In this document: positions 17,714-63,650 of the stretch, in pieces
Layout of the letters: every line of letters begins with the position of its first letter
How positions within the stretch are numbered: the first letter of the stretch is position 1
Assembly: GCA_025966365.1 (NCBI GenBank)
Contig: JAICWV010000001.1
Location: 911 to 64,910, forward strand
DNA length: 64,000 nucleotides
From: Chloroflexota bacterium
GTDB lineage: Bacteria; Chloroflexota; UBA5177
Reading direction: 5' to 3'
Program-made: the position numbers and the translations under genes
Notes under the pieces: model-generated
What the model saw: the letters and a program-made list of their open reading frames with translations, nothing else
Database searches by the model: none
What the model was told of the DNA's origin: nothing

Positions 17714-18001
17714 CGGACCGAAGTAGCGGTCGGCAACCCGGTTGGTAGCAGGAAGTACGGCTACCCGACTTTTTTTGGGGTAGTCCGAGCGGGGAAGTGC
17801 CAGATTAGGAGCCGCGAAGAGGGTTCGCGGAACGACAAGCCCGATAGAGATAATGCTCGCCGCAAAGACTATTCGTCGGATAAACCTCTCCTCCCCTGCT
17901 CGATGCCATGATACCCAAAAGCGTGACCAGGCCGTAATACCGTGGTACGATGGACTCCTGCGAATCCTGGTGGTTCGGGGAGGAGAATCGAGGTCTCGGA
18001 C

Positions 18002-21439: not shown

Positions 21440-21871
21440 GTCTCTCTCCCTCTCCACCGGGCAGAGACCCTGATCGGTCTGCCTCGGCAACCCGGCTAAC
21501 TCCAGAGAGTCCCGTGGCTTTGCGTCCCCGCCTCGCGGCGAGTTTGCCTTTATCGATTGCTGGATTCGGAACCTCTTGTTCCGGTCCTTACTCTAGATGG
21601 TTAGTGGCCATGACCGTAGTGCATGAAGTCCCGGTGCTCGGGTGACTTTGGTCCGGCGCACGTGCGTCAACAGTTGTCAAGGTGAGACTGGTTCGGCTAC
21701 TGTCTAGCTAACATTCGTCCGGTACAGACTGTGCCGATTTGCGCCCTTCTCGTGCTCGGGAGGAGCAGGAAGTGGTGGAGCGTGCCTTCCACGCAGACGA
21801 CTAGAGGGGAAGGGTAGGACAATACAGCACTGTATGCGTTACCCCATGCGCTCTATAGACCCGGACGACGT

Positions 21872-46647: not shown

Positions 46648-49431
46648 ATGACCGAGCTCTCCCCCGCCGTCGCCTCCCCTCCTGACGACCCGGCAACGCA
46701 GTTCCTCGCCTTCCTCATCGCCGACGTCCGCGGCTACACCAGCTTTACGGTCGAGCACGGTACGCCGGCCGGGGCCCGGCTGGCCAGGAAGTTCGCCGAG
46801 CTCTCGAAAGTTCTGGTGGCGGCACGTGGGGGCGAGGTGATCGAGCTGCGTGGCGACGAGGCACTCGCGATTTTCGCCGATCCGCGTCAGGCGCTATACG
46901 CGGCGGCGGAAATGCAAGAGCGCTTCCAGCAGGAGATGGAGGAGGATCCTTCCCTCCCACTGAAGGTCGGCATCGGCGTGGACGCCGGTGATGTGGTCCC
47001 CGTGGAGGGCGGCTATCGCGGTCTGGCGTTGAACCTGGCCGCGCGGCTGTGCAGCCTGGCCAAGGCCGGCGAAGTATATGCAACCGAGGGAATCGTCCAC
47101 CTCTCCGATAAATTGGACGGCTACGTCTACGTCGAGCGCGGCCGTGTCGCGCTCAAAGGGTTCTCGGACCTGGTCCGGGTGATCCAGGTGCTCCCTGAAG
47201 GAGAGCTTCCGGCAGGGTTCCCGCCGCTGGTGTCACTGGTGGCCAGGCCCAGCAACCTCCCCTTACAACCAACTCCGTTCGTCGGCCGCGAGGCCGAAAT
47301 CGCGGCCGTGACCGACATGCTCCGACGCGACGACATCCGCCTCCTGACGCTCACCGGTCCGGGAGGAACCGGGAAGACCCGGCTCGCTCTGCAGGGCGCG
47401 GCGGCGGTGCTGGACGACTTCCAGCGCGGAGCTTTCTGGATCCCGCTGGGCTCCGTGGCCGACCCCGGCTTGCTGGCCTCTACCATCGCGGGCACACTCA
47501 AAGTGAAGGAAGCACCGGGGGTCCCCATCCTCGAGACCCTGTCGGACTATTTGAAAGATCGGCAGATGCTGCTGGTGCTGGATAACTTCGAGCACCTGGC
47601 GGACGCGGCACCCGTGGTCGCAGCGCTGCTGGCGGCCTGTCCGGACCTGAAGATTCTCACCACCAGCCGCTCTCCACTTCACGTAAGCGGCGAGCACACC
47701 TTCGATGTTCCCCCACTGACGCTGCCCAACCTCCAGCGGCTTCCGTCGGTCGAGGAGCTGCTGTCGTACGATGCCATCGCGCTCTTCGTGCAACGGGCGC
47801 AGGCAGCCAGGTCCGACTTTACACTCACCGCCGAGGTTGCTCGGCCGGTGGCGGAGATCTGCGCCGGCGTCGACGGCCTGCCCCTGGCGATCGAGCTTGC
47901 CGCCGCAAGAATCAAAGTCTTCCCACCACCGATCCTGCTGCGCCGCCTCTCCAGGCGGCTGAGCCTGCTTACCGGGGGCGCCCGCGACCTCTCGGCCCGG
48001 CAGCAGACGCTGCAGGCGACCATCGACTGGAGCTTCAGCCTGCTCGATCCCGGCGAGCAGCGGATCTTTGCCCGCATGGCCGTCTTTGCCGGCGGCTCTA
48101 CCCTCCATGCCATCGGCCGGGTGTGCATGGAGCCGGATGAACACCTGGATGAGGGCACTCTGGCATCGCTGGTGGATAAGAGCCTGATGCGGAAGGAGGG
48201 AGGAGACGATCGCTTCTTCATGCTCCGGACGATCCGGGACTACGCCTGGCAGCGGCTGGAGCTCAGTGGCGATACCGATCCAATGCAGCGCCGCCATGCC
48301 TCCTACTATCTCGATCTGGCCAGGGAGGCCGAGCCGGCATTTCGCGCACCCGACCAGGACATCTGGATGAGCCTGCTGGAGCGAGAGCACGACAATATGC
48401 GCGCCGCTCTCAGCTGGGCCCTGGAAGGCGAGGATCGCGAGCTGGCGCTGCAGCTGAGCGCCGCGCTCCATCGGTTCTGGCAGGTCCACGGTCACCTGAC
48501 CGAGGGACGGCAGTGGGTCGAGCAGTCGCTGGAGCGGGCAGGGGAAGTGCGCACCCGCGACCAGATCGAAGCGCTCGTCGGCGCCGGATGGCTGGCATTT
48601 TACCAGGATGACATCGACAGATCGGAACGCTTTCTGTCCAGGGCGCTCTCCCTGGCGGAGGAGCTGAACGACGAAATCGGCCGCGCCGACGCGCTTTACG
48701 GTCTGGGCTGTATTGCCGATGCGCAGGGCGACTACGATCGCGCCGAGACGCTCATCGAGGAGTGTCTGGACGCCTATCTCGGTCTGAACGATACCTGGGG
48801 CGTGGCCCTGGCCATGAACAACCTCGGTCTCATTGCCAAATACCGCGGCGAGCTGGAGCGAGCGCAGGAGCTGATGGAGGAGGGGCTGGAGCTGGCACGG
48901 CACCTGGGCCAGCGGCGTGCCCTCGGCATCCTCCTCTTCAACCTCGGCTGCGTTCACTGGTGTATCGGCGATATGTCCGGGGCCAGGGAGCGCTACCAGG
49001 AAGCGCTGGTCGAGCTTCAGGACGTCGGCGAGCGGTTGGTCACAGCGATGACGGAAGGGGAGCTTGGCCTGGTGGCAGGCGCCGAGGGCGATTATTCCCG
49101 CGCCCAGGAGCTGCTGGCGCAAACCCTGGAGACGTACCAGGAGCTCGATTACAGGCCGGGCATCCCGGAGTGGCTGGAGAACCAATCCCGCATCGCCGGG
49201 TTCCGGGGTGACGCAGAGCGCGCGGCCCTGCTCTACGGTGCCGCCGATGCTCTCCGCCAGGAGCTCAATCTGTCGCTCCCCGTCGTGGACAAAAACGCGC
49301 ACGAGCGAGATCTGGAACCGGCTCGCTCGCAGCTGGGCGAGGATTGGCAAACCGCCCTCCACAGAGGTCGTGAGCTGACAGCCGAGCAGGCGATCGAGCT
49401 GGCACAGGCCGCATCATCGGTACCGGGCTAA
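46648..49431 (+). CDS. STAND-type signalling protein: class III adenylyl/guanylyl cyclase domain - NB-ARC/AAA ATPase - TPR repeats
   Basis: Cyclase motifs (FLIADVRGYTSF, GDEALAIF, GIGVDAGDV, NLAARL). P-loop LTGPGGTGKTRLA. C-terminal TPR array. Confidence 0.8.
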   Translation: MTELSPAVASPPDDPATQFLAFLIADVRGYTSFTVEHGTPAGARLARKFAELSKVLVAARGGEVIELRGDEALAIFADPRQALYAAAEMQERFQQEMEEDPSLPLKVGIGVDAGDVVPVEGGYRGLALNLAARLCSLAKAGEVYATEGIVHLSDKLDGYVYVERGRVALKGFSDLVRVIQVLPEGELPAGFPPLVSLVARPSNLPLQPTPFVGREAEIAAVTDMLRRDDIRLLTLTGPGGTGKTRLALQGAAAVLDDFQRGAFWIPLGSVADPGLLASTIAGTLKVKEAPGVPILETLSDYLKDRQMLLVLDNFEHLADAAPVVAALLAACPDLKILTTSRSPLHVSGEHTFDVPPLTLPNLQRLPSVEELLSYDAIALFVQRAQAARSDFTLTAEVARPVAEICAGVDGLPLAIELAAARIKVFPPPILLRRLSRRLSLLTGGARDLSARQQTLQATIDWSFSLLDPGEQRIFARMAVFAGGSTLHAIGRVCMEPDEHLDEGTLASLVDKSLMRKEGGDDRFFMLRTIRDYAWQRLELSGDTDPMQRRHASYYLDLAREAEPAFRAPDQDIWMSLLEREHDNMRAALSWALEGEDRELALQLSAALHRFWQVHGHLTEGRQWVEQSLERAGEVRTRDQIEALVGAGWLAFYQDDIDRSERFLSRALSLAEELNDEIGRADALYGLGCIADAQGDYDRAETLIEECLDAYLGLNDTWGVALAMNNLGLIAKYRGELERAQELMEEGLELARHLGQRRALGILLFNLGCVHWCIGDMSGARERYQEALVELQDVGERLVTAMTEGELGLVAGAEGDYSRAQELLAQTLETYQELDYRPGIPEWLENQSRIAGFRGDAERAALLYGAADALRQELNLSLPVVDKNAHERDLEPARSQLGEDWQTALHRGRELTAEQAIELAQAASSVPG

Positions 49432-49445
49432 GACATGGGAGTGAT

Positions 49446-50573
49446 GTGCGGGCGCTTCTAGCGGCTCTGTGCTTTGCGAGCGTGCTGATGCTCGGCGCCT
49501 CCGGCGGCAGCTCATGGCCGATGTCGAGTCACGATCCCGAGGCAACCAACTTCAACAGCGGCGAAACCTCCCTCACCCCCGGCAACCTTCGGCATCTGCA
49601 TCCGGTGTGGAAGCAGACCGGTCACCTCTCCGGGTTCGTTGTCGCGAGCGGTCGTGTATACGCCGCGTTTCCGCAAGGGATTCTGGTACTTCAGCCACGG
49701 ACAGGGAAACGGCTCATGCTGGTAACGCTCAGATCTCTTCACCTGACATCGGCGCTGCTGGCCGTGAACCTTGCCTACTCGAGAGGCGTGCTCGTGGTCG
49801 CGACGCACGACGCCATCATTGCCATTCAGGCACACTCCGGCCGGTTCCTCTGGTCATTTCCGGTGAGCTTTACGACGGGGGTGCTGGTGCAAGGCACAAC
49901 GGTGTTCACGGGAAGCTACTGCTTCAATGGCTGTCCCACGCGCGCCCTTGATCTACGCACCGGCAAGATCCTCTGGGAGAATGCGACGGGGGGACTGCTG
50001 CAGGCAATTGTTGGCGGGCGAGTATATGAGGGGCTTCTCTGGCACGGCTCGTGTCAGAACCGTGTCTTGAGCGCTGACAGCGGTGCTCTGATTACGATCC
50101 TCCCCTCTTGTACGCAGCCGATTGGCGCCGGCAACCACCTGTACGCAGAGGTCTTTCCCGGCGATGCTCACCGGCCAAACATGCTCGGCGGCCTCTCGCC
50201 CGCCGGCCGGTTGACGTGGAGTATCCCCCTTGGGAAGGCCGACGAGCACCCGCTGGCGCTGGGCTATGGCACAATCTTCGCCGCCGCCCACGGACGCCGC
50301 GACGCCCTGGTGGCCGTGAGCACGCGCGCGAAACGCGTCCTCTGGCGGCGTCCCGTGGAGGGCTCCAGTGCTCTCCTGCTGGCGAGCCACATGGTTTTCG
50401 TGGTCGACAAAGAAAGCCGAAGCGTGAAGGTGCTGACGGTGGCGAGTGGCCGAACCATCAGGACCATCCGCGTCCCCGGATCCGACAAGTCTAACCCGCT
50501 CTCTGGGACCGTCGTGGCGGACGGAGCAGTCTATGCGTGGCTCTTTAATGGGCTGGTGGCGATGAGGCCGTGA
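49446..50573 (+). CDS. secreted PQQ-like beta-propeller repeat protein
   Basis: Signal peptide. Repeated G-x-hydrophobic-Y/W-A...G-x-hydrophobic PQQ/BamB-like blades (RVYAA, FLWSF, KILWE, RVLWRR). Confidence 0.6.
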   Translation: MRALLAALCFASVLMLGASGGSSWPMSSHDPEATNFNSGETSLTPGNLRHLHPVWKQTGHLSGFVVASGRVYAAFPQGILVLQPRTGKRLMLVTLRSLHLTSALLAVNLAYSRGVLVVATHDAIIAIQAHSGRFLWSFPVSFTTGVLVQGTTVFTGSYCFNGCPTRALDLRTGKILWENATGGLLQAIVGGRVYEGLLWHGSCQNRVLSADSGALITILPSCTQPIGAGNHLYAEVFPGDAHRPNMLGGLSPAGRLTWSIPLGKADEHPLALGYGTIFAAAHGRRDALVAVSTRAKRVLWRRPVEGSSALLLASHMVFVVDKESRSVKVLTVASGRTIRTIRVPGSDKSNPLSGTVVADGAVYAWLFNGLVAMRP

Positions 50574-52651: not shown

Positions 52652-54634
52652 CTACAGGTGCGGGCCCTGGAAATACAGGTGTGGCTCGAGCCAGTGGTTG
52701 GGTGAGACCACCGGCGGCGGCTGCCGGGGAAGAGGTATGGGCTGGATGGCGCGAGGCACGATGGGCGCGGTGATAGACCACTGGCGGTCGGGGTGCATGA
52801 GGCGCCAGGTTCTGGTTCCTCCCAGCGCATCGTGAAGCGTCACCACCACCGAGTCCGGGTGGCTTCCCGGCTGATGCTGAAGGACCAGGCCGTAGCGCCG
52901 TCCACCCGACCAGGAGAGGGCATTGGGCGGCACGACGTAGTGCAGCCTGATAACCGCGGTCTTGCCGCGCCGAACGATGACATAGCCGGGAAACTCGGTC
53001 TTGCCGTAGGCGGGCCCCGGCGTCCACGGGTCTGTCCACCCAGACTGATCCACAAGCTGGCCACCGGCGGGAACGAGCACGCGGAGGTAGCTGGCGTAAT
53101 CGTCCGGACCTCCCAGCATGCCGCCTCCCGGACCGACGCCCTGGCTCATCCTGTCGGCCGGCTCCGGCTCGTTCCAGAAGCGGACCGCCAGCCGCGCGTC
53201 AAGCCAGCGGTCGGGCCGGACCGTGACGTTGTAGCGAACCGACTCGTGCACGTAGGGGTTGATCTTGTTGAAGGACAGGTTGCTGTCGACCAGGTACAGA
53301 TAGTCGCCGGTCGTCCGGCTGATCTCGCCGGAGGCGCCGAGGAGGCGAACCAGCTGCTCGTCCCGGGCGTCGGAAAAATGGAGCAGGAGATCGCCTCTGG
53401 CCACGGCGTCTTGCAATTGCGAGGCGAGACGCAGCCAGCCCCGGACATCCAGCGACTGAATCCGGGCGATCAGGTGCCCGGCCACGATGGGAATGAATCG
53501 CTTGGATGCGTTTGGCGCCCAGTGGGCGTAATAGTCCGTGAGCTGAGCGAGGTTATCGGCGGTGACCTGGCGGTGGTACTCGGGGACATACATGGGGCCG
53601 GTCGCGGCAAGGACGGCGGCTGCCGCCTGCGGGGTCACATTGATGACGCCGGTGGGGTTGGCACCCAGGTCCATGCGCACGAAATAGCGCTCCACCGCAG
53701 CGGTGGTGGGAAAGTCCGGTGACCAGTTGGAGTCGCGGAGCAGCCACCAGATCTCGTTATACAGCCGTATGGGCTCGGGGGCAGGAACCCGGAGCTGCTC
53801 GCGCTTCCGGATCTCGCTATTTTCGAAATGTTGTTTCACGGAGCCGCGATTGACCGTCACCAGGCCGAAGCTTCCGATGAACCCTCCCGTCGGCCGCAAC
53901 TCCAGCGGATCCTGATAGGCGATGAAGTACGTCATGGGGGTGGTTGCGCCGAGAAGGCGGGGGGCGAGCGTCAGGCTCAGGCAGGCAGCGCGCAGCGGCG
54001 GGAGCGCGGCATCAAAGGTGTGCAGCGCCGACGCCAGTTGAGCGGGTGGGTGCGCCGGGATCGTGCGGCGGATCCGCGCTGCCGAGCTGAAGAGCGCATA
54101 TGCGTGCTGGAAGGCGCCGCGCTGCGATGCAATACCCACTGAGAGCTCTTGCAGCCGGTGCCCACCCTTCTGCGCGCGTGCCCGGTGGACCACCGGACGG
54201 AGTGCATCGAGCAGCACCAGAATCCCATCCGAGGTGGTGGAGGCGAGCCGGGTGGCCGGCGGGGCCGCCGCCAGCTGACTGCCGATAACGGGAACCCACG
54301 CCAGATGCGCCAGGATCGGGCTGAGCGGCTCCAGACGCGCGTCGGCCGCCCCGAAATCAGCCCGGGCCCGGCGTACGCGGACCGTGGCCCCGGCGAGGGC
54401 CGTATCCGCTGAGGCAGCCGTGGTCACTCCACTCAGCCCTGTCCTGGCGAGATCGATCTGTGTGACTCCGGAGGTGATGAGGCCGCGCGCGGAAAGGAGC
54501 AGGTAGGCCGAGAGAATCAGCGCCGCCAGGAGGACGAGCACGGCAACACCTGCCAGGAGCAGCGGAGTGCGCGAGTGTCTTCGGGGCGCCGGAAGGGGCC
54601 GGGCCTCCGGCTCGACCGCGGGTCGTCTCACCAC
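52652..54634 (-). CDS. membrane-anchored extracytoplasmic protein, DUF4012-like
   Basis: N-terminal Arg-rich tail plus one TM helix (LLLAGVAVLVLLAALILSAYLLL), then a large ectodomain. Motif YQDPLELRPTGGFIGSFGLV recalls DUF4012. GTG start 1 nt from the upstream sortase stop. Confidence 0.5.
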   Translation of the reverse strand: MVRRPAVEPEARPLPAPRRHSRTPLLLAGVAVLVLLAALILSAYLLLSARGLITSGVTQIDLARTGLSGVTTAASADTALAGATVRVRRARADFGAADARLEPLSPILAHLAWVPVIGSQLAAAPPATRLASTTSDGILVLLDALRPVVHRARAQKGGHRLQELSVGIASQRGAFQHAYALFSSAARIRRTIPAHPPAQLASALHTFDAALPPLRAACLSLTLAPRLLGATTPMTYFIAYQDPLELRPTGGFIGSFGLVTVNRGSVKQHFENSEIRKREQLRVPAPEPIRLYNEIWWLLRDSNWSPDFPTTAAVERYFVRMDLGANPTGVINVTPQAAAAVLAATGPMYVPEYHRQVTADNLAQLTDYYAHWAPNASKRFIPIVAGHLIARIQSLDVRGWLRLASQLQDAVARGDLLLHFSDARDEQLVRLLGASGEISRTTGDYLYLVDSNLSFNKINPYVHESVRYNVTVRPDRWLDARLAVRFWNEPEPADRMSQGVGPGGGMLGGPDDYASYLRVLVPAGGQLVDQSGWTDPWTPGPAYGKTEFPGYVIVRRGKTAVIRLHYVVPPNALSWSGGRRYGLVLQHQPGSHPDSVVVTLHDALGGTRTWRLMHPDRQWSITAPIVPRAIQPIPLPRQPPPVVSPNHWLEPHLYFQGPHL

Positions 54635-56034
54635 CAGAGCCGGATAGGCTTGCCGCCGGATGAAAGCTCTTGCACGCGATTGTTCTGGCTATCCACCACG
54701 TACACATTGCTGCGCGCGTCCACCGCAACGCCGTAGGGCTTTCGGAATTGGCCGAGACCTGATCCCGTCTTGCCCCACGTCGCGCTCAGTTTGCCCGAGG
54801 TCGAATAGCGCAGCACGCTGTCGATCTTGGGGCTCACCACGTAGACGTGACCGCTGCCATCTGCCGCCACGCCCTCTGGTGGGACGGACTCCCAGCGCTT
54901 GAGCTTGACCTTGACCTTCCACATCTTCAGGAAGTCCCCGTTGGGCGAGAGCTTCTGAATCCGTCCGTTTGCCGAGTCGGCCACGTAGATGGTCCCGTCC
55001 GGCGCGACCGCCACGCTGTCCGGGTACCAGAATTCGCCGTGGCCGTGACCGAAATGCCCCCAGGTGGCGAGCACCTGCCCGGAGGGCGACAGCTTCACAA
55101 TCTGATTGGCGCTCGAATTCGCCACGTACACGTTCCCCTGAGCGTCCACGGCAACACCGGCGGGATCATCCAGACTGACCTTGACTGATCCGGTGTCACC
55201 CCACTGCGCCAGCGGCTGACCGGTGGCAGAAAAGACCTGAACTCGATGATTGCCGTCATCCGCTACATAGACGGTGCCGTTGAGGGCCACGGCCACGCCG
55301 GAGAGTCCCCGGAACTGGCTGGTTCCCGTGCCGTAGGTACCCCACCTGTGCAGTGCACGCCGCCGCGCGTCGAACGTGGCGATCCTGTTGTTGCCGGCAT
55401 CGGCAATGAACACATCTCCCTTGCGGTTGACCGCGACGCCGAGCGGTGTCGTCAGCGAGGGCAGCGCGGCGCCACCGGGGAGCGTGGTGAGGGTGGCATA
55501 GACGATCTGCCGGTGGTCGTATCCGGTCCCGTCGCGGTGGAACACGCCCGCGCAGGTGATCAGGAAGAGGCCGCGCTCCTTGGTGGCGGCATCCATAAAG
55601 CCAGTCGGCATTCCGCTGTCGGAGTACTCGCGATTCCACCGCACCTTGAATGTCAGGCTCTGACCGTCAGCGTATTGCACGGTAATTCCGTCACCCCGCA
55701 CCAGGTCCTTCAAGTGCCAGAACACGGCGGGACAGCAGTATGAGTCGAGGTGGCCGTAGATCTGGGCGCGCCCCATATCGCCCGGGCGCGGTCCCTGCGA
55801 GTACCAGGCGACATCTCCCCATTTGTACGGCGCCTCGGTATCGGTTGGATGCGTCATGGAGACTGACTCGACGGCCGTGCGGATGCCGAGTCTGGGAATG
55901 CTCACCACCCTGGGCCAGCCGGGCGGCACGATTTGCATCCGCGTGGCGATAGGGGTTGCCGCGCGTAACGTTGAGGCCGGCGTGACGATCGGAAACAGGA
56001 TCAGTCCGATCATGACGATCAGCGCGCGGTTCAT
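54628..56034 (-). CDS. sortase (class E/F-like) fused to six NHL beta-propeller repeats
   Basis: Signal anchor MNRALIVMIGLILFPIV. Sortase catalytic pattern (IYGHLDS...GDGITV...LFLITCAG...R). Six NHL repeats (GVAVDAQGNVYVAD, PDSVAVAPDGTIYVAD...). Confidence 0.7.
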   Translation of the reverse strand: MNRALIVMIGLILFPIVTPASTLRAATPIATRMQIVPPGWPRVVSIPRLGIRTAVESVSMTHPTDTEAPYKWGDVAWYSQGPRPGDMGRAQIYGHLDSYCCPAVFWHLKDLVRGDGITVQYADGQSLTFKVRWNREYSDSGMPTGFMDAATKERGLFLITCAGVFHRDGTGYDHRQIVYATLTTLPGGAALPSLTTPLGVAVNRKGDVFIADAGNNRIATFDARRRALHRWGTYGTGTSQFRGLSGVAVALNGTVYVADDGNHRVQVFSATGQPLAQWGDTGSVKVSLDDPAGVAVDAQGNVYVANSSANQIVKLSPSGQVLATWGHFGHGHGEFWYPDSVAVAPDGTIYVADSANGRIQKLSPNGDFLKMWKVKVKLKRWESVPPEGVAADGSGHVYVVSPKIDSVLRYSTSGKLSATWGKTGSGLGQFRKPYGVAVDARSNVYVVDSQNNRVQELSSGGKPIRLWW

Positions 56035-56177
56035 TCCGTTCTTGCCAGTGGGAGAATGCACAACGCCAATAGTACGCCGCCTGGACGGCGGACGCGAACC
56101 GAGGGCCCTCTTCCCGCGGCTGTCCCGGCGTGTTACTGCTGATGCGGGGGTAATTGACGGAATTTCCATTCAGACTC

Positions 56178-56311: not shown

Positions 56312-56923
56312 ATGGACGGGCGAGCAGAAGATCTAGCACCCTTGGCGCGGTCCAAAGGGCTCGTTGTTCGCGAGCTCGACGGTGAGATTCTCATCTTTGA
56401 CCGCGAGAGTGATGCAGCGCACTGTTTGAATGATGTGGCAGCGGGCGTCTGGAAACGTTGCGATGGCTATACCACCATTGCCGAGATGGTGGACGATCTA
56501 TCGAGCACCTCGGGAACTCGGGTTGACGAGTACGTGATTTACAAAGCGCTTGCCGACCTGAGCAAGAAGGATCTCTTGCTCGAGGAGGTGAAGTCGCCAC
56601 GATCACGCAAGGAGATGTCGCGGCGCGACATGATGGTGAAGTCCGCGGCCGCCGCAGTCATCATGATCCCGGTGATCAAGTCGCTGTCGTCACCCAGTGG
56701 CGCTTACGCAGCAGGTGTATGCACCGGCTGCGTCGCGCACAATCAGCCCTGTTCCAGCACGCAACCGTGCTGCGGCGCCGGCGTTAATTGCAAACTCTCC
56801 GGCTGCTGCTATCTCGGGACTGCCTGTTCCGGGACCGGCACCTGCGGTGTCTGCAGCGGATGTGAGTGCCAGCCCAATAGCCACACCGGCTGCGGTCAGC
56901 CGTGCGCGGAGACCGGCTGCTAA
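56312..56923 (+). CDS. PqqD-like (RRE) domain fused in frame to a twin-arginine-like signal/TM segment and a 16-Cys C-terminal domain
   Basis: GGGAGGG 4 nt upstream of ATG 56312. PqqD pattern LVVRELDGEILIFDRESDAAHCLNDVAAGVWKRCDGYTTIAEMVDDL. Then MSRRDMMVKSAAAAVIMIPVIKSLSSPSGAYAAG. Then VCTGCVAHNQPCSSTQPCCGAG...CAETGC. Confidence 0.6.
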   Translation: MDGRAEDLAPLARSKGLVVRELDGEILIFDRESDAAHCLNDVAAGVWKRCDGYTTIAEMVDDLSSTSGTRVDEYVIYKALADLSKKDLLLEEVKSPRSRKEMSRRDMMVKSAAAAVIMIPVIKSLSSPSGAYAAGVCTGCVAHNQPCSSTQPCCGAGVNCKLSGCCYLGTACSGTGTCGVCSGCECQPNSHTGCGQPCAETGC

Positions 56924-56985
56924 GACGCCAACCGAGTAGCGGATCCATGCAGGTTCGTCCTGCGTGTGGGTTTCAGATTCGGATG

Positions 56986-57019
56986 GGCGGACGCGGGTTC
57001 TCTTCCACCCACGTCCGCC
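56986..57019 (+). terminator. GC-rich hairpin (GGCGGACGCGGG-loop-CCCACGTCCGCC, 11/12 bp) 60 nt downstream of the Cys-rich gene stop
   Basis: Read from the sequence. No U-tract (I-shaped), as is common in high-GC bacteria. Confidence 0.35.
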
Positions 57020-57069
57020 TGTGGGGCACTGGTGCGTCCACACCACAGCCGATTCGCGCACGGTCCGGA

Positions 57070-57098
57070 TTGATTTGAGCCGGAACTCCGCGTATTAT
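57070..57098 (+). promoter_or_regulatory. sigma-70-like promoter candidate (TTGATT-17-TATTAT) upstream of the MauE-thioredoxin gene
   Basis: Near-consensus hexamers with a 17-nt spacer, ~50 nt upstream of the ATG at 57151. Confidence 0.4.
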
Positions 57099-57150
57099 CA
57101 GTACCAACCTGCCGTGGGGCAGTTCATTTGACCCGTTGGGAGAGTCCTTG

Positions 57151-58698
57151 ATGCCTGTACTTGTCCTCATTGTCCGCCTGTTGCTGGCGGGCGTGTTTGT
57201 GTTGTCCGCGACCACAAAGCTTTTTGATCGCCTGGGCACACGGCAAGCTGTTGCGGACTTTGGTGTGCCGGAAGCGCTCGTGGAGGGCGTTGCGTTCGCG
57301 CTGCCGGTGGCCGAGCTGCTCGTCGCGGTGCTTCTCATCCCCGGCTCGATCGCCTGGGTCGGCGGGATCGGGGCGGCAATCATCCTGGTGGCTTTCTGCG
57401 TCGCCATCTCAGTCAATCTCGTGCGCGGCAATATCGTGGATTGCCACTGCTTCGGGCAGGTCCATTCAGAGCCCATCAGCACGCGGGTACTGGTTCGCAA
57501 CGCGGTCCTCATCGTGGCAGCTGCATTCGTCGCGATAGCGGGTCGTCCCAATCGAGACCCCAGCGCCTTTCAATCACTGGGATTGACGTCCAGCTTCCGG
57601 TGGGAGGCCGCGGGCATGGGTCTGCTGATGCTCGCGCTGCTCGGAACACTCACCTGGCTCGTGCTCCGCATGAGCGCTGACAACAAGCAATTATTTATCA
57701 GGATGAAGCTGCTCGAGGCCGACATTCGGAGCGGAGGCGTTACTGCCCGTGCCGGCGACGAGGAGGACGCCGTTGAGGACGAAGATCCGAACGTGGGGAA
57801 GCCCGCTTCGTGGCTGGAGCTGCCGAACCTGACGGGCCAGAAAATAACTCTGGCGGATCTCGCGGCACGCGGGAAGCCGATTCTGATGGTCTTTGTCCAT
57901 CCCTCCTGCGCCACGTGCTCGGTGGTGCTGCCCATGGTCGCCCGCTGGCAGCAGGAGTACTCATCCCGATTGACGATTTCGATCATCAGCGGCGGCAAGC
58001 TCCGGGCGAATGTCGAGAAAGCGGAGGAGTACGGCCTTCAGGAAGTCCTGGTGCAGAAACGGCACGAGATAGAGCAGGCATACTCGATTCCCAGAGTACC
58101 GAGCGCAGTCATGGTCTTGCCGGATGGAAGGATTGGAAGTCCCGTCGCGACCGGGCCCGACGACATCCGCGCCCTGTTTGACATCGTGCTGGACCTCGTC
58201 CACGAGCAGATGACCGGTGCTCCCACGCCGCACGTCCATGACAATCCCAATGGCCATAGCCAGGTGGCATGGCCCGATATCAGCATCCCGGCCCCAACGG
58301 TCAGGCTTCCGGACGCAACCGGCCGAATCGTCGACCTGAAGGAGTTCCGAGGTCAGCGGGTTATGCTGCTCTTCTGGGGAACCAACTGCTACCACTGCGA
58401 CCAGATGCATCTCGATATCAAGGAGTGGGAGGCGGATCCGCCGGAGGGGGCCCCAACCCTTGTCATGGTCGCCGTCGGTCCCGAGGAGGAGGTGCGTGCC
58501 TCGGCCAGGGAGTACAGGTCCACCATGCTCGTGGATCCCGAGTTTGAGGTTGGACCCACCTTCAACATCAGTGGCGCCCCCCTCGCAGCGCTGATCGACG
58601 AGGATGGAACATATGTCACGCGTATCGCGGGCGCATACGACATCCTCGGAGTGCTCCGGAACGAGATTCCATGGCCGTCCGCCCTCACCCGGAGCTGA
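57151..58698 (+). CDS. MauE/DoxX-family membrane domain fused to two thioredoxin-like (TlpA/MauD-like) domains
   Basis: Four TM helices with a CHCFG motif (MauE-like). Two thioredoxin-fold segments with CxxC (HPSCATCS; GTNCYHCDQ). GGGAGAG 8 nt upstream of the ATG. Confidence 0.75.
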   Translation: MPVLVLIVRLLLAGVFVLSATTKLFDRLGTRQAVADFGVPEALVEGVAFALPVAELLVAVLLIPGSIAWVGGIGAAIILVAFCVAISVNLVRGNIVDCHCFGQVHSEPISTRVLVRNAVLIVAAAFVAIAGRPNRDPSAFQSLGLTSSFRWEAAGMGLLMLALLGTLTWLVLRMSADNKQLFIRMKLLEADIRSGGVTARAGDEEDAVEDEDPNVGKPASWLELPNLTGQKITLADLAARGKPILMVFVHPSCATCSVVLPMVARWQQEYSSRLTISIISGGKLRANVEKAEEYGLQEVLVQKRHEIEQAYSIPRVPSAVMVLPDGRIGSPVATGPDDIRALFDIVLDLVHEQMTGAPTPHVHDNPNGHSQVAWPDISIPAPTVRLPDATGRIVDLKEFRGQRVMLLFWGTNCYHCDQMHLDIKEWEADPPEGAPTLVMVAVGPEEEVRASAREYRSTMLVDPEFEVGPTFNISGAPLAALIDEDGTYVTRIAGAYDILGVLRNEIPWPSALTRS

Positions 58699-59585
58699 AT
58701 CCATTCCACGCTGATCGGCTGGTTGTGCTCCGGGGTGAGGATCTCCCCCGGCTGAGGTACCCGGTGGCCGGCTTGCGTGAGCTCGATGGGCGGGCCTGGG
58801 GTGCCGGGATAGCAGTCAGCGCCTACGGCGTTCGTCTCGGCGTGCGAGCAGAGCATTCCTCTGTGCTGCTTGGCCTTGGTGATGTTCTCCCGCCGGGATG
58901 GCGCAGCGTGACCGGACCGTCACCGCGAGTCGATCGCCTGTACTCTCTGGTCTTTCCGCAGGATGGTCCGCCGCTCGTGTACGACAACGCCACGTCGTGG
59001 ATCGGGCTCAGCTCCTTCCCGTGGCCTGATGTTCTGGAGCAACTGACGACGTCCCGCGTGGTGCGTCTGGCCACCCGGTACGTCTTCGTGCATTCCGGCG
59101 TCGTGGCATGGCAGGACCGAGCCATCGTGATTCCCGGCGACAGCCGGTCCGGAAAGACCACACTGGTGGCCGCGCTGATTCGGGCCGGCGCAACGTACTA
59201 TTCGGATGACTTCGCCGTCATCGATTCGTCGGGGCTGGTTCGCCCATATGCGCGGCCACTGAAAATACGACGCTCGAGGTTCGGAGAGTTTGACAGGCAC
59301 CGGGTGGAAGAACTGGGTGGCCGGCGGGGGATCAATCCGATTCCCATGGGCGCGGTGGTACTGGCGCCCTATGAAGAAGGAGCCGGCTGGCAGCCGCACA
59401 CGCTCTCGCGGACCGAAGGGCTCGCGTTGCTCATGATGAACAGCATGCAAAAGCGACGGCGGCCCGAGTGGGTGCTGGACGCCCTGACGAGAGCTGCGTC
59501 TCATGCCGTAATGATTGGCAGCAGTCGGGGCGACGCCGACGAAACGGCGCGGCGCATTCTCGAGACCGCCTCCACCCTCACGTGA
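58671..59585 (+). CDS. HPr-kinase-related serine kinase (HprK C-terminal-domain homologue)
   Basis: P-loop IPGDSRSGKTTLVAALIRAG, comparable to the HprK GxSGxGKS. ~300 aa. 28-nt overlap with the upstream gene. Confidence 0.65.
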   Translation: MAVRPHPELNPFHADRLVVLRGEDLPRLRYPVAGLRELDGRAWGAGIAVSAYGVRLGVRAEHSSVLLGLGDVLPPGWRSVTGPSPRVDRLYSLVFPQDGPPLVYDNATSWIGLSSFPWPDVLEQLTTSRVVRLATRYVFVHSGVVAWQDRAIVIPGDSRSGKTTLVAALIRAGATYYSDDFAVIDSSGLVRPYARPLKIRRSRFGEFDRHRVEELGGRRGINPIPMGAVVLAPYEEGAGWQPHTLSRTEGLALLMMNSMQKRRRPEWVLDALTRAASHAVMIGSSRGDADETARRILETASTLT

Positions 59586-60532
59586 GCCGTTCTTTCAGCG
59601 CAGCGGCTCACAACCTCCGGGTGTGGGGCCACGCCCTCCCCATACTCGAGAAGCTGTCCGAGGCGGACATTCCGGTGGTCATTCTCAAGGGTCTTCCTCA
59701 AATCGAGGATCTGTATGGCGACCCGGGGACACGAATGACCTCGGATGTCGACATGCTCGTTCCGTCCCGGCACGCACGATCCACGCTCGCGCTTCTTGCC
59801 GACGCAGGATGGCAGCCGGGAAGCGCGTCCACGCTGCGCTGGCTCACCTCATCCCAGGGGGCCGAAGCCGCATCGTCGCGTCCATGGCACATGCATCCGC
59901 CTCCGAACCTGACCGGCTGCCTCATCGATCTGCATTTCGATCGCATGACCCGGAGCCCGAAGCCGACTCTTGACCCGAGCATCTGGGAGCGAGCCGTGCG
60001 GATGTCACGTGACGGTGCCGATTTCCTGGTCCTCGGTCGGGAGGATCAACTGCTTTTTCTGTGCTACCACTTCGTGACCGACCACCTTCCCTGGCACAAG
60101 CTTCGAGATATCGAGGTGCTCCTGGGCCGCTCGACAGAGCTGGATTGGGACTACATTGCCCGGCGCGCTCGCCTCTCCGGTGTCACCATTGCCGTCTACC
60201 TTGCGTGCCGGCTCGCGGCGCGCGATGCAACGGATCCAGTCCCGGACAACTGGCGGGGTGTCGCTCCGGTGGACCGTCTCCGCGCCTCGGTCCTGGCCGC
60301 CATGTTGGATCGCCGCCCCGGGCTTGCCCAGTCGCGTTACTGGGCGCTCGTGTGGCTGCTCGCGCATGATCGTCCCTGGGACATGCGGACGGTGTGGCGC
60401 CACATCTTCTTCCCTGACCGGGTTACCATCGCGGCTGAATATCTTGGCCGCTGGCCATCGCGGGCCGAGTATCTCGCCGAACTGGGGCGCATCTACCTGC
60501 GTCGTATCCGGAAAAGTTTCGGACGCGCATAG
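59582..60532 (+). CDS. nucleotidyltransferase-family protein (PF14907-like)
   Basis: GTG start overlapping the upstream stop (GTGA). Pol-beta-type motif ...KGLPQIEDLYGDPGTRMTSDVDMLV (G..D.D). Confidence 0.55.
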   Translation: MSRSFSAAAHNLRVWGHALPILEKLSEADIPVVILKGLPQIEDLYGDPGTRMTSDVDMLVPSRHARSTLALLADAGWQPGSASTLRWLTSSQGAEAASSRPWHMHPPPNLTGCLIDLHFDRMTRSPKPTLDPSIWERAVRMSRDGADFLVLGREDQLLFLCYHFVTDHLPWHKLRDIEVLLGRSTELDWDYIARRARLSGVTIAVYLACRLAARDATDPVPDNWRGVAPVDRLRASVLAAMLDRRPGLAQSRYWALVWLLAHDRPWDMRTVWRHIFFPDRVTIAAEYLGRWPSRAEYLAELGRIYLRRIRKSFGRA

Positions 60533-60656: not shown

Positions 60657-62294
60657 ATGCACCTTGGAAACCTGAATCTTTCGACCTATCTCCGCTATAC
60701 GCGTCTCTGGATTCTCTTCGCTGTCCTGCCCGCTCTGGTCGCGGGAGCCCTGGGCTATCTGAACACCAGGGCGCAGCCGAAGACGTACAACGCCTCCGCG
60801 TCTCTCTACGTGCAGCAGCCGACACAGAGCGGCATCGGCGTCAGTGGGGTGCAGGACCTGTATGCCAGCAGCCAGTTGGCTCAGACATACAGCCAGCTCG
60901 CGGTGCAGCCGACCGTCGAAGCGGCAGCCGACGTGCTGCTGGCGAAGAAGTATCCTGGATACCGGATCGAGGATCACGGCCTCCAGAGCGCCCCTGCCAG
61001 CATTCAGCAACAGACTCCTCTGATCATCCTCAGCCTGTCGGACACGGTGCCCAAGCGTGCGGCTGATGCGGTCAACGCGGCCAGCCGCGCATTCATCGGT
61101 CGCATCGATCAATTCAACCAGCTTCGCTTTGCCACCGATGACCAGGCACTGTCGGCTCAGATCGGCAAGCAGAAGGCGGCGATCAACAAGATTCTGGGCC
61201 AGATCGCAGTCTATAGAGGGCCGACAAGCGGCCTGGATGGTCTGAAGACGGCCCTCAGTGCCTACCAATCGACGTATCAGTCGCTCGTCTCGTCTCAGCA
61301 GCAACTGCGTATCGAGCGCGACATCTCGTCGAGCACCATCAACGTCTATTCCAGGGCCACACCGCCCACATCGCCAACCGGTCCTCACCCGACGCGCACA
61401 GCACTCTACTGGGCGCTGCTCGTGCTCCTGGCCGGATCGGCAGCGGTGTATGGATACGAGTATTTGAGTGACCTGCCGGCAACGCCGGAAGAGGTGAGTG
61501 AGATCGCGGGGGCTCCAGTCCTGGCGGCGATCCCGGCCGCACGCGGTCGCCGGGCGCGGCGCCGCCTCATCGAGGAAGGTCAAGCCCAGCCGCTCGACGA
61601 CGAGGGATACCGCCTGATCCGGACCAACATTCAGTTCGCCAGCATCGATCGTCCGCCACACACCTTGCTGGTCACCAGCGCGCTTCCCGGCGAGGGCAAG
61701 ACGACCACGGCATCCAACCTGGCGCTGGCATTTGCCGATGGCGGCCGATCGGTCATCCTGGTGGACGGCGATTTGCGCCGCCCCTCGATGCACCATCTGT
61801 TCGACACTCGGTCGGCCAACGGCCTGACCCAGCTTATTCTGTCGGTGCAGACAAACGGGCATCGGCCGGGTCATGAGGTATACCGCAACCTGGCCGTGAT
61901 TCCAGCCGGTCCCCTTCCGCCCAATCCTGCCGATATCCTCGGCTCCACCCGGATGGTCGAACTGGTCCGCAATCTGCGCGGGCATTCCGAGGTCGTCATC
62001 ATCGATGCTCCTCCCGTTCTGGCGGCATCAGACGCGGCCATCCTCTCCACCCTCGTGGATGGGGTGATCCTCGTGGTCGATCTGCACAAGACCAAGCGCC
62101 GGGAGATCAGGCGAGCGCGCGAGGCGATCGAGGCAGTCAACGCCAGGTTTATGGGCGTCGTCATCAACCGCTTCCAGGTGCGCGACCGCTCGTACTATTA
62201 CGAGTATTCCGAGAGCTATGGAGCGAAGAGGACACCCGGCGGCCCGCCGGACAGCAGGGATGCGAGCCCGTCGCTGCCCAGTTCCCTTCGCTAG
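60657..62294 (+). CDS. polysaccharide co-polymerase / tyrosine autokinase (Wzc/BY-kinase)
   Basis: N-terminal Wzz-like domain with two TM helices. CpsD-like ATPase with Walker A SALPGEGKTTTASNLA and DxD. C-terminal tyrosine cluster YYYEYSESYG. Confidence 0.85.
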   Translation: MHLGNLNLSTYLRYTRLWILFAVLPALVAGALGYLNTRAQPKTYNASASLYVQQPTQSGIGVSGVQDLYASSQLAQTYSQLAVQPTVEAAADVLLAKKYPGYRIEDHGLQSAPASIQQQTPLIILSLSDTVPKRAADAVNAASRAFIGRIDQFNQLRFATDDQALSAQIGKQKAAINKILGQIAVYRGPTSGLDGLKTALSAYQSTYQSLVSSQQQLRIERDISSSTINVYSRATPPTSPTGPHPTRTALYWALLVLLAGSAAVYGYEYLSDLPATPEEVSEIAGAPVLAAIPAARGRRARRRLIEEGQAQPLDDEGYRLIRTNIQFASIDRPPHTLLVTSALPGEGKTTTASNLALAFADGGRSVILVDGDLRRPSMHHLFDTRSANGLTQLILSVQTNGHRPGHEVYRNLAVIPAGPLPPNPADILGSTRMVELVRNLRGHSEVVIIDAPPVLAASDAAILSTLVDGVILVVDLHKTKRREIRRAREAIEAVNARFMGVVINRFQVRDRSYYYEYSESYGAKRTPGGPPDSRDASPSLPSSLR

Positions 62295-62537
62295 CTCCCA
62301 TGGCCCCTGATTGACCCAGTTGTCAATTTAGGGGGTGACAACTGTCTCATTCGGTGGTACAGTGGTCACGGTCAAAAGTCCCAGCAATCCGAGGACGTAA
62401 GTCCTGGCTGGTCTTTGCGTGATCCATAGGAGGTATGGAAGGGACCGGCGGGAAGGAAAGGGAAAGGCCCAGCCTGTGGTCTGGTTGGGGGGGACAGAAC
62501 GGTGGATATAGTTCGTCTGGTTGCTGCGGGTGTGGAC

Positions 62538-63650
62538 ATGCCCCTCATCGCCGCAGCACTTCTGGTAACGGTGGCCTCGTACGTCGGGGTCGCGTTGGTT
62601 CGATTCTATGCCCCGCGCGTCGGCTTTTTCGATCTGCCCAATGAGCGGAGCTCGCACGCTCGTCCAATACCTTCCGGCGGCGGTCTTGCCTTTGCCGTCA
62701 TCACCCTTGGCGCCTGGTGGTGGTTGCTCGAGTTCCATCCGAGCATTCCCCTGGTTCAGGCGGTCAGGACGCAGCACGCGCTGGCCTTTATCATTGCCGG
62801 CGCCCTCATCGCCGGAATCAGCCTGATCGACGATCTCGGTCATGTGCCGGTCGTCTTCCGACTGGCGGTCCATGCCATCGGGGCGGCGGTCTTTGTCGCG
62901 TTCTTCGCGTGGTGGTCAGCGCTGAATCTGCCACTCCTGGGCTGGGTCACCCTGGGAACCGCCGGGGTATTCATCTCGATCTTCTGGATCGTCGGCATGG
63001 TCAATGCCTACAACTTCATCGACGGTCTCGACGGAATGGCCGGTGGCCAGGCGGCCGCAGCCGGGCTTGGGTGGGTGGCTCTGGGCTTCTCAACCGGCCA
63101 CTTCGCCATCGAAGCCATGGGTGCTCTGCTTGCCGCCAGCAGTATTGGGTTCCTCTTCCACAACTGGCACCCTGCCAGGATCTTTATGGGAGACGTGGGC
63201 AGTACCTTCCTGGGATTCTGCTTTGCCATTCTGCCGATCATCGCCGCTCAATACGATCCACGATTGGCGCTGGCGGGCGTGCTTCTCGTGTGGCCCGCAC
63301 TCTTCGATACCGGCTTTACCATCGTCAATCGCCTGCGCCGCGGCGAGAACGTCTTTACCGGGCACAAAGAGTTCCTCTTTCACCGCCTGGTAGCAGCTGG
63401 ATGGAGCCATGCCGCCGCATCCACGCTCTATTTCACGCTGCCGCTGGCTGGAGCAGGCCTGGCCTTCACCTGGCAGTACGGAAGCACGTCGCTGCACGTC
63501 GCTGCGTTGTGCTCCATCGTGCTTCTCTGCGTTGGTCTCTGGGCACTCGTCCGCGACCAGGAGAAGCGACACCTGGCGCAGCTGCAGGAAGTTCCCTCGG
63601 CCGACAGCATGCGGCCGGAACCCGCCAGGAGAGTGGCCGGGCGGGTCTAG
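62538..63650 (+). CDS. UDP-HexNAc:polyprenyl-phosphate HexNAc-1-phosphate transferase (WecA/MraY family)
   Basis: About 10-11 TM helices. Conserved motifs NAYNFIDGLDG and MGDVGS. Confidence 0.85.
   Translation: MPLIAAALLVTVASYVGVALVRFYAPRVGFFDLPNERSSHARPIPSGGGLAFAVITLGAWWWLLEFHPSIPLVQAVRTQHALAFIIAGALIAGISLIDDLGHVPVVFRLAVHAIGAAVFVAFFAWWSALNLPLLGWVTLGTAGVFISIFWIVGMVNAYNFIDGLDGMAGGQAAAAGLGWVALGFSTGHFAIEAMGALLAASSIGFLFHNWHPARIFMGDVGSTFLGFCFAILPIIAAQYDPRLALAGVLLVWPALFDTGFTIVNRLRRGENVFTGHKEFLFHRLVAAGWSHAAASTLYFTLPLAGAGLAFTWQYGSTSLHVAALCSIVLLCVGLWALVRDQEKRHLAQLQEVPSADSMRPEPARRVAGRV

Follow-up and report, generated by a model that had tools for sequence, protein, structure and literature searches.

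A four-gene cassette (g1 to g4) in the genome of an uncultured soil Chloroflexota bacterium probably makes a new kind of exported, modified and disulfide-knotted peptide. The cassette lies in a stretch of 64,000 nucleotides (nt) of contig JAICWV010000001.1 (assembly GCA_025966365.1, forward strand, positions 911 to 64,910), hereafter called the window, whose own numbering is used for all coordinates below. For the aconitase encoded in the window, every named best match is from Chloroflexota, with identities of up to 75%. Its first gene encodes a presumed precursor that joins, in one chain, a recognition element of the type found in pathways to peptides that are made on ribosomes and modified after translation (RiPPs; RiPP recognition element, RRE), an internal twin-arginine-type signal and a Cys-rich tail. 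The two last genes encode a kinase and a nucleotidyltransferase of the types that tailor lasso peptides, and g2 encodes a MauE-thioredoxin fusion. An exported, disulfide-rich product had been predicted in the initial annotation of this locus, and our comparisons retain it as the best reading. The four genes are:

56312..56923, plus strand: g1, 203-amino-acid (aa) fusion of RRE (PqqD), signal and Cys-rich core, presumed precursor
57151..58698, plus strand: g2, MauE membrane domain, a fifth transmembrane (TM) segment and two thioredoxin-fold CxxC domains (predicted extracytoplasmic)
58671..59585, plus strand: g3, P-loop kinase of predicted HprK/PEPCK fold, cytoplasmic
59582..60532, plus strand: g4, PF14907 nucleotidyltransferase-fold enzyme with a GTG start

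These genes had been described as four co-directional genes with overlapping ends. All are indeed on the plus strand and two junctions overlap, by 28 nt between g2 and g3 (ATG 58671 against the g2 stop TGA at 58696-58698) and by the GTGA at 59582-59585 between g3 and g4, both as read in the sequence; however, g1 and g2 do not overlap and are separated by 227 nt. The start of g1 is ATG 56312, with GGGAGGG four bases ahead of it, and public gene calls agree on 203 aa. For g2 we prefer ATG 57151 over TTG 57136, based on a GGGAGAG ribosome-binding site and on public calls of 515 aa. Hydropathy gives exactly one TM segment in g1 and none in g3 or g4.

The g1 protein and its family

Three parts can be distinguished along g1:

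56354..56581, plus strand: RRE/PqqD winged-helix domain, residues ~15-90, three strands and then three helices, cytoplasmic
56615..56710, plus strand: twin-arginine-type internal signal/leader, residues 102-133, MSRRDMMVK followed by a hydrophobic stretch and P..AYA, with a signal-peptidase-like AxA site
56711..56920, plus strand: predicted exported core, residues 134-203, 70 aa with 16 Cys

The first part matches the PqqD family (PF05402, 26.7 bits against a cut-off of 23.4), and the AlphaFold2 (AF2) model of residues 15-90 reaches a predicted local distance difference test score (pLDDT) of ~90, with strands at 17-22, 25-30 and 35-39 and then three helices. Foldseek places it closest to the lasso B1 proteins TbiB1 (5v1v, target TM-score, TMt, 0.69) and 6jx3 (TMt 0.74), both structures being solved with their leader peptides, and to PqqD (5sxy), followed by the RRE domains of TruD, LynD, CteB and ThcOx. 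Moreover, the g1-family hidden Markov model (HMM) matches BsfB1, the RRE protein of a lasso cluster discussed below, at 33.7 bits. As modelled, residues 15-90 have the RRE/PqqD fold and are nearest to lasso B1 proteins, and they are predicted to bind a leader. Two Cys residues lie inside this cytoplasmic domain, Cys38 (56423-56425, HCLN motif) and Cys50 (56459-56461, CDG motif), and are conserved in 95% and 89%, respectively, of 66 relatives. To our knowledge, typical PqqD proteins are not known for such a pair, which may be structural, metal-binding or redox-active.

The second part follows a pattern shared by the same 66 relatives, S-R-R-(D/E)-h-h-(R/K)-(R/K), a hydrophobic stretch and A-x-A right before the first Cys. 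In g1 itself this reads S103-R104-R105-D-M-M-V-K, a hydrophobic segment at 107-125 that is the only one of the protein, and A131-Y-A133. Conservation is high along the whole element (S103 82%, R104 100%, R105 97%, P120 98%, S124 83%, P128 97% and A133 83%), and [ST]RRxhh is present in 134 of 161 representatives of the g1 family. With the twin-arginine translocation (Tat) model TIGR01409 (cut-off 16.7 bits), two of six homologues pass, at 20.2 and 20.9 bits. The combination of S-R-R, hydrophobic region (h-region) and AxA is what characterises twin-arginine signal peptides that have a signal-peptidase I site, and export and cleavage of the tail would follow from it. The initial annotation had the RRE fused to a 16-Cys domain; the 16 Cys are indeed found in the last 70 residues, but the S-R-R signal and the AxA site between the two parts had been missed. 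Their presence indicates that the Cys part is an exported core and not a mere fused domain.

The h-region of g1 is unusually conserved, which suggests that the signal is recognised before export. Tat proofreading chaperones of the TorD/DmsD/NapD type bind twin-arginine signal peptides, and g1 likewise ties a small cytoplasmic peptide-binding domain to such a signal. This is an analogy in which binding by g1 is predicted; moreover, unlike in TorD and NapD, the putative binder has the RRE fold and is fused in cis. We speculate that the RRE or the enzymes recognise the signal, which would then be leader and signal at once. Lipoprotein processing of g1 was set aside, as the residue ahead of the first Cys is T or N in ~40% of the relatives, and if that Cys were lipidated, the even number of Cys described next would become odd.

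The fusion is not an isolated case. Twenty close homologues have the identical architecture, and a profile built from g1 and 18 homologues retrieved 10,339 representatives (of clusters at 50% identity) with E<=1e-3, or 1,806 with E<=1e-30; the best 150 are all 127-230 aa long and aligned end to end. Hence the Cys-rich region travels with the RRE, as had been proposed for checking, in thousands of relatives. Among the 161 representatives, 152 have a locatable signal motif, and in 149 of these the number of Cys in the tail is even (4 to 16), which is what intramolecular disulfide pairing predicts. The commonest tail has ~26 residues and the arrangement C-x6-C-x5-CC-x3-C-x4-C (spacing 6-5-0-3-4), and a C-C-CC-C-C framework is seen in 38 of 67 six-Cys cores, with hypervariable sequence between the Cys residues. 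The core in the window keeps the family motif QPC-x5-CC and contains C-x6-C-x5-CC-x5-C. Knottins such as conotoxins and omega-atracotoxins have the same C-C-CC-C-C pattern, although the core in the window is longer and has 16 Cys. Knottin Pfam models gave only sub-threshold matches to g1 cores (12-17.5 bits against cut-offs of 21-27; E 0.005-0.4), so that the likeness is a resemblance and not membership.

Several loci carry tandem g1-like genes with differing tails beside a single kinase gene (L010:4792-5885, L059:11061-11847, L079:11059-12148 and L082:10912-12209), and second g1-like copies are found 4-5 kb upstream in L037, L056 and L068. Duplicated g1-like genes with varied cores resemble multi-precursor RiPP loci. 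Two kinase-adjacent g1-like proteins, L030:8949-9458 and L032:8944-9534, have no tail Cys at all; their tails are Pro/Ser-rich and end in an amphipathic Trp motif, GGFW(K/D)WLE(D/K)(L/F)F, indicating that the cassette is not limited to disulfide-rich cores. An orphan g1-like gene was also observed (L004:6742-7266), with kinase and PF14907 genes absent within ~7 kb and with PQQ_2 beta-propeller and NHL-repeat genes following it; both protein types also flank the cassette in the window, at 49446-50573 and 54628-56169.

The Cys parity bears on a lanthipeptide-like chemistry, in which the kinase, with or without the nucleotidyltransferase, would activate Ser/Thr of the core, and elimination and Cys addition would then form thioether rings before Tat export. 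Phosphorylation followed by elimination is the established textbook route to class III/IV lanthipeptides, the cores are rich in Cys plus Ser/Thr, and a Tat-type signal would suit a substrate folded or cross-linked before it leaves the cytoplasm. However, 149 even counts in 152 tails fit pairing of Cys with Cys and not of Cys with Ser/Thr, no lyase or cyclase domain is found in the cassette, and the Cys-rich versions recruit an extracytoplasmic disulfide oxidoreductase. We regard this route as very improbable.

The kinase, the nucleotidyltransferase and the lasso tailoring set

No Pfam family matches g3, and its best NCBIfam match is TIGR04352 at 47.5 bits against a cut-off of 200. A search of the PDB with the kinase-family sequence profile gave nothing meaningful, and only the fold search was informative: the AF2 model (pLDDT 91.6) finds PEPCK at E 7e-5 and the HprK/P catalytic domain (1kkl/1jb1) at TMt 0.55-0.58. 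For comparison, we translated BsfK, the lasso peptide kinase of Bradymonas sediminis, using the sequence that PMC10368454 gives. Residues 142-193 of BsfK are covered by the alignment to the g3-family HMM, in which H141, G156, K162, T163, D179 and D180 of g3 correspond, with identical spacing, to H148, G163, K169, S170, D186 and D187 of BsfK, the importance of which is shown by mutagenesis (PMC10368454). Among 37 kinase-family sequences H141, K162 and D179 are invariant, G156 is invariant or nearly so, and position 180 is D or E. By predicted fold and catalytic motif g3 is placed with the HprK-type kinases, and peptide phosphorylation would be its likely activity. The other enzyme, g4, matches PF14907 (NTP_transf_5) at 123.2 bits against a cut-off of 31.2, and 72-76 of 78 homologues share its K36-G37, D55, D57, D116 and H118. 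Judged by these residues, g4 is a PF14907 enzyme with intact catalytic carboxylates, whose chemistry can be suggested by analogy (see below). The catalytic sites of the two enzymes are:

59091-59093, plus strand: g3 H141, from the BsfK alignment
59136-59162, plus strand: g3 P-loop, G156-T164, from the BsfK alignment
59205-59210, plus strand: g3 D179-D180, from the BsfK alignment
59744-59752, plus strand: g4 D55xD57, catalytic carboxylates of the Pol-beta-type signature
59927-59929, plus strand: g4 D116, catalytic carboxylate of the same signature

The initial annotation had named loss of catalytic residues as a possible objection to its proposal, and both enzymes keep them. Some kinase homologues (P0023, P0042, P0043, P0073, P0093, P0100, P0128 and P0130) carry the precomputed label PF27840.1, which may be a family new to Pfam. 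An anti-phage defence system was rejected as an identity for the cassette, since PADLOC gave one weak match only (g3 at 16.6 bits).

The kinase family comprises at least 698 protein clusters and at least 594 loci among GTDB species genomes. Its carriers are mostly Acidobacteriota (Blastocatellia, Pyrinomonadaceae), and others are found in Abditibacteriaceae, Methylomirabilis, Nitrospinota, Calditrichota, Actinomycetes and the cyanobacterium Richelia sinica (strain FACHB-800, locus L082). We examined the best 80 of these species-genome loci, to which all counts of genome loci below refer. A compact trio of kinase, g1-like and PF14907 genes is present in 46 of them, kinase and PF14907 in 20, kinase and g1-like gene in nine (often at contig ends) and the kinase alone in five; a g1-like gene lies within 1.5 kb of the kinase in 55. 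The order of the trio varies among species genomes. Moreover, the complete four-gene set recurs in independent metagenome contigs, in the order of the window in L006, L007 and L009 and in the order g2-g3-g1-g4 in L001-L003 and L008. Recurrence in two gene orders indicates that the arrangement is not due to chance, and the suspicion that the co-localisation might be unique to this genome can be dropped. The sub-group with kinase and PF14907 genes alone includes L013:9986-11983 and 19 others (e.g. L027, L040, L049 and L085); in L013 the pair is preceded by genes for a TPR protein and for a membrane protein rich in Gly/Ala, and roughly half of the sub-group has a 531-552-aa WecA-like gene ~6-8 kb upstream. 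Small alternative precursor open reading frames with a signal and a Cys-rich tail were not found in the loci of this sub-group.

The closest characterised counterparts of the trio are tailoring genes of lasso peptides. In the bsf cluster of B. sediminis, BsfK phosphorylates Ser3 of the core, the RRE protein BsfB1 strongly accelerates BsfK, and a nucleotidyltransferase gene, bsfN, is present (PMC10368454). In the pseudomycoidin pathway PsmK phosphorylates a Ser and the nucleotidyltransferase homologue PsmN attaches a hexose to the phosphate (PMC9266682). The B1/K/N sets of bsf, of psm (Bacillus pseudomycoides) and of pade (Paenibacillus dendritiformis) consist of the same three protein types as the g1 RRE, g3 and g4. 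Several differences separate the cassette from them: it has no B2 protease, C cyclase or small lasso precursor; its RRE shares a chain with a twin-arginine-type signal and with a disulfide-rich core that lacks a C-terminal Ser; and the sequence similarity of g3 to the lasso kinases is limited to ~50 residues round the active site. We built an HMM from nine lasso B2 proteases (PMC10368454 supplement), which recovered held-out B2 proteins at 1e-31 and 1e-41. It gave no match in 92 trio loci (10 kb each side), in 80 MauE loci or in the six-frame translation of the 64-kb window. The only Asn-synthase homologue in the window, the family of the lasso C synthetase, is a GATase-bearing AsnB-type gene 32 kb away in a glycan locus, and none is found in the cassettes of L090-L092. 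Lasso genes are hence not constant neighbours of these enzymes, an objection that the initial annotation had considered, and its picture of a conserved, peptide-linked cassette outside lasso biosynthesis is borne out. We conclude that the cassette is homologous to the lasso B1/K/N tailoring set and shares ancestry with it, but is not a lasso cluster. A degenerate or split lasso cluster, with protease and cyclase encoded elsewhere, could be imagined from the fact that the RRE is structurally nearest to lasso B1 and that K and N are known lasso tailoring genes; the missing B2 gene, the missing small precursor, the presence, in thousands of relatives, of a signal and a core on the RRE protein itself, and synteny kept across phyla with rearranged gene order make this, and equally a meaningless co-localisation, extremely improbable.

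The trio had also been equated with the HPr-rel-A set of NCBIfam, a computationally defined system of TIGR04352 (kinase A) and TIGR04353 (PqqD family chaperone) in which a kinase gene likewise adjoins a PqqD-family gene. Membership was rejected, since both curated cut-offs are missed. Like g3 itself, its homologues stay far below the 200 bits of TIGR04352 (45.6-57.4 bits), and with TIGR04353 (cut-off 35 bits) g1 gave no match at E<=0.1 and two homologues reached 20.0 and 21.8 bits. Moreover, the TIGR04353 model covers 74 positions of a stand-alone RRE, to which g1 and its relatives add the signal and the Cys-rich core. On these profile scores the cassette is best placed as a sister family of the HPr-rel-A system.

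The MauE-thioredoxin gene

The protein encoded by g2 combines a MauE domain (PF07291, 97.7 bits) with an AhpC-TSA/Redoxin (thioredoxin-type) domain that occurs twice. Its MauE motif PDC(H/N)CFGQ is invariant in orthologues, as are the three redox motifs, compared in six orthologues:

57442-57450, plus strand: g2 C98xC100
57907-57918, plus strand: g2 C253xxC256
58387-58398, plus strand: g2 C413xxC416

Hydropathy predicts five TM segments, a topology in which the two thioredoxin domains and the CxC loop would face the cell exterior. MauE and MauD have a role in maturation of MauA, the Cys-rich, Tat-exported small subunit of methylamine dehydrogenase. The parallel to g1 and g2 lies in a MauE and a MauD-like thioredoxin fold beside a Cys-rich exported polypeptide with a Tat signal. 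In contrast to MauE/MauD, g2 fuses MauE to two thioredoxin domains and is distant from MauD itself (TIGR02661, 63.3 bits against a cut-off of 188.6), and no mau or dehydrogenase genes are found among the annotated neighbours of the cassette.

The initial annotation took g2 to be an integral fourth member of the system, and this does not hold. In the species genomes a MauE-thioredoxin gene stands beside the trio in only three of 80 loci (L061, L087 and L089), or in four if a thioredoxin fragment at a contig edge (L073) is counted. A metagenome scan found at least 594 relatives with MauE and two thioredoxin domains (MauE-Trx2), and among the best 80 of their loci six carry any gene of the trio and 74 do not. 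The MauE-Trx2 gene was hence rejected as a specific member of the trio system. In 47 of these 80 loci, the last 60 residues encoded by an adjacent gene on the same strand include 6 or more Cys. Most of these neighbours are secreted proteins extremely rich in Cys (20-55, with repeats of the NCGxCGxxC type), and S-R-R signals are present in some. Median values for cores encoded with g2 in the locus, a set that includes the window and its close relatives, are 10 Cys and 66 aa, and without g2 they are 6 Cys and 28 aa (Mann-Whitney p = 8e-6 for Cys count, with no correction for phylogeny). As MauE-Trx2 fusions also stand beside other Cys-rich secreted proteins, they are a general dedicated partner of Cys-rich exported proteins and accessory to the trio, which has recruited one where the core is long and Cys-rich. 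The same association supports that the tail of g1 is exported and disulfide-bonded. The pairing of MauE-Trx-Trx with a Cys-rich secreted protein (L097-L176; e.g. L105:2-766, L108:57-1073, L126:4132-4692 and L173:5006-5935) looks uncharacterised and is independent of the kinase trio.

Gene neighbourhood and proposed pathway

The cassette is situated between a glycan locus and genes for chain-length control and initiating sugar transfer, within a polysaccharide region of ~40 kb. The main neighbouring features are:

21872-44528, plus strand: polysaccharide (glycan) locus, ~23 kb, upstream of the cassette
52652..54634, minus strand: DUF4012 protein (Pfam), which also flanks the cassette in L001
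54628..56169, minus strand: sortase-NHL beta-propeller fusion (Pfam Sortase and NHL), divergent from g1
57070-57098, plus strand: promoter-like site in the g1-g2 spacer (consensus scan, 9/12 matches, weak evidence)
60657..62294, plus strand: Wzz-type chain-length/BY-kinase-like P-loop protein (Pfam Wzz and ParA/CbiA/AAA_31), directly downstream of the cassette
62502..63650, plus strand: WecA-like polyprenyl-phosphate sugar-1-phosphate transferase (PF00953, Pfam)

The glycan locus encodes the AsnB-type amidotransferase, Wzm/Wzt (with a Wzt_C domain), an FkbM methyltransferase, about ten glycosyltransferases, a Wzy-like polymerase and a carbamoyltransferase, and so mixes ABC-transporter-type components (Wzm/Wzt) with a Wzy-like polymerase. 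A GGDEF-EAL protein (17942-19423, plus strand) and a transglutaminase-like protein (20282-21490, minus strand) are encoded just upstream of it, and between it and the cassette lies a gene for a 927-aa NB-ARC/AAA_16 and TPR (STAND-type) protein (46648-49431, plus strand), which may be a regulator. The sortase-NHL fusion also adjoins g1 in L006 and L007 (phmmer 3e-176 to the open reading frame beside g1 in L006); its architecture is unusual, and g1 has no obvious sorting signal. The idea of a regulatory RNA or conserved element, either upstream of g1 or between g1 and g2, was considered and set aside, as neither region matches Rfam (E<=1), the fold z-score of -1.47 is not significant, and the spacer does not align to L006 or L009.

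This setting is shared by relatives of the cassette. The Wzz/BY-kinase-like gene has an equivalent position in L001, L006-L008 and L092, the trio is confirmed by Pfam amid Wzy, glycosyltransferase and Wzz/BY-kinase genes in L090, L091 and L092, and a BY-kinase or WecA-like transferase gene lies within 10 kb in 33 of the 80 genome loci. Such neighbours favour a regulatory module for the envelope or its polysaccharide, in which g1 would be an uncleaved type II membrane protein with a Cys-rich ectodomain as sensor, and its RRE would dock the kinase and the nucleotidyltransferase, whose substrates would belong to the polysaccharide machinery (BY-kinase/Wzz, lipid-linked sugars or the glycan). The 20 genome loci with kinase and nucleotidyltransferase but without g1, and the lack of a conserved phospho-acceptor in the cores, speak for such a module as well. 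On the other hand, the cores are very short (median 28 aa), hypervariable and present in tandem paralogues, which is typical of secreted peptides and not of sensors; the conserved P at about -6 and the A-x-A ahead of the first Cys favour cleavage; and the closest characterised relatives of the kinase and of the RRE act on peptides. We therefore consider the regulatory module unlikely, though not remotely so.

The explanation that we prefer, tentatively and at somewhat less than an even chance for all its parts together, is that a lasso-derived tailoring module acts on a precursor with its own RRE, the core of which is exported, cleaved and disulfide-folded. Two modules can be proposed. In the first, formed by g1, g3 and g4, the RRE would be part of the substrate protein itself. 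The g1 protein would be made in the cytoplasm, where its N-terminal RRE would be a built-in handle that recruits and activates g3, as free BsfB1 does with BsfK. The kinase may then O-phosphorylate a Ser or Thr of g1, and g4 may extend that phosphate by another group in the manner of PsmN in pseudomycoidin; that g1 is phosphorylated or nucleotidylated is thus suggested by analogy with the lasso systems. The twin-arginine-type signal would insert in the membrane so that the RRE stays inside and the tail comes to lie outside, and signal peptidase would cut after AYA (residue 133), freeing a peptide of 70 residues and 16 Cys. The second module, g2, would be an accessory membrane thiol oxidoreductase, with a MauE CxC relay and two outward CxxC thioredoxin domains, that forms and shuffles eight disulfides of the core. 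The product, which may be antimicrobial, signalling or structural, would have its place at the cell envelope or in the polysaccharide matrix whose genes surround the cassette. What the comparisons establish are the domain identities, the catalytic residues, the synteny, the motif of the signal, the even Cys counts and the association of g2 with Cys-rich cores; g1 as substrate of the kinase, the chemistry of g4, the route of export and the cleavage are proposed from them.

Several observations weigh against this pathway. The g1 of the window gives no match to the TIGR01409 Tat model, and its signal lies ~100 residues from the N-terminus, which is unusual, so that it could be an uncleaved signal anchor. 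AF2 confidence is low for the g1 tail. With regard to the acceptor site, no Ser/Thr is invariant across the cores of the g1 family, the C-terminal Ser used by PadeK-type kinases is not present in the core of the window, and this core has Gly at +2 after the predicted cleavage, where 78% of the relatives have Ser/Thr. Furthermore, 20 of the 80 genome loci have adjacent kinase and PF14907 genes with no g1-like gene within 10 kb, implying that g1 is not the sole substrate of the pair, unless g1-like genes are located elsewhere in those genomes.

What is known already is the lasso B1/K/N set, and the novelty is an RRE-dependent tailoring module on a precursor that has its own RRE, signal and Cys-rich core. 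We did not find the cassette in the literature searched, and the g1 family, absent from that literature, is without functional annotation. A more far-reaching proposal is that of a new and widespread peptide class in Acidobacteriota, Chloroflexota and other soil phyla, with an own-RRE precursor, a Tat signal that is also the leader read in cis, a phosphodiester-linked decoration by K and N before export and a knottin-like product, for which the MauE-Trx2 oxidase/isomerase would form eight disulfides in the Chloroflexota version; taken as a whole, this is rather doubtful.

If the preferred pathway is true, a substrate that contains its own RiPP-type recognition element, coupled to a twin-arginine signal for export, would be described for the first time within the literature searched, and the K/N pair of lasso tailoring would be at work in a setting other than lasso biosynthesis. 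This reading also gives a rule for genome mining, namely a PqqD domain, an S-R-R signal and an even number of Cys in a gene beside the kinase, and a testable role for the abundant MauE-thioredoxin fusions as dedicated folding catalysts of Cys-rich secreted proteins. The cassette is often found close to polysaccharide-synthesis genes, which suggests that its function lies in the cell envelope or the biofilm matrix. The family would then be a large one of exported, disulfide-rich and probably phospho-decorated bacterial peptides, comprising no fewer than 1,800 clusters (50% identity) and present in the genomes of hundreds of species.

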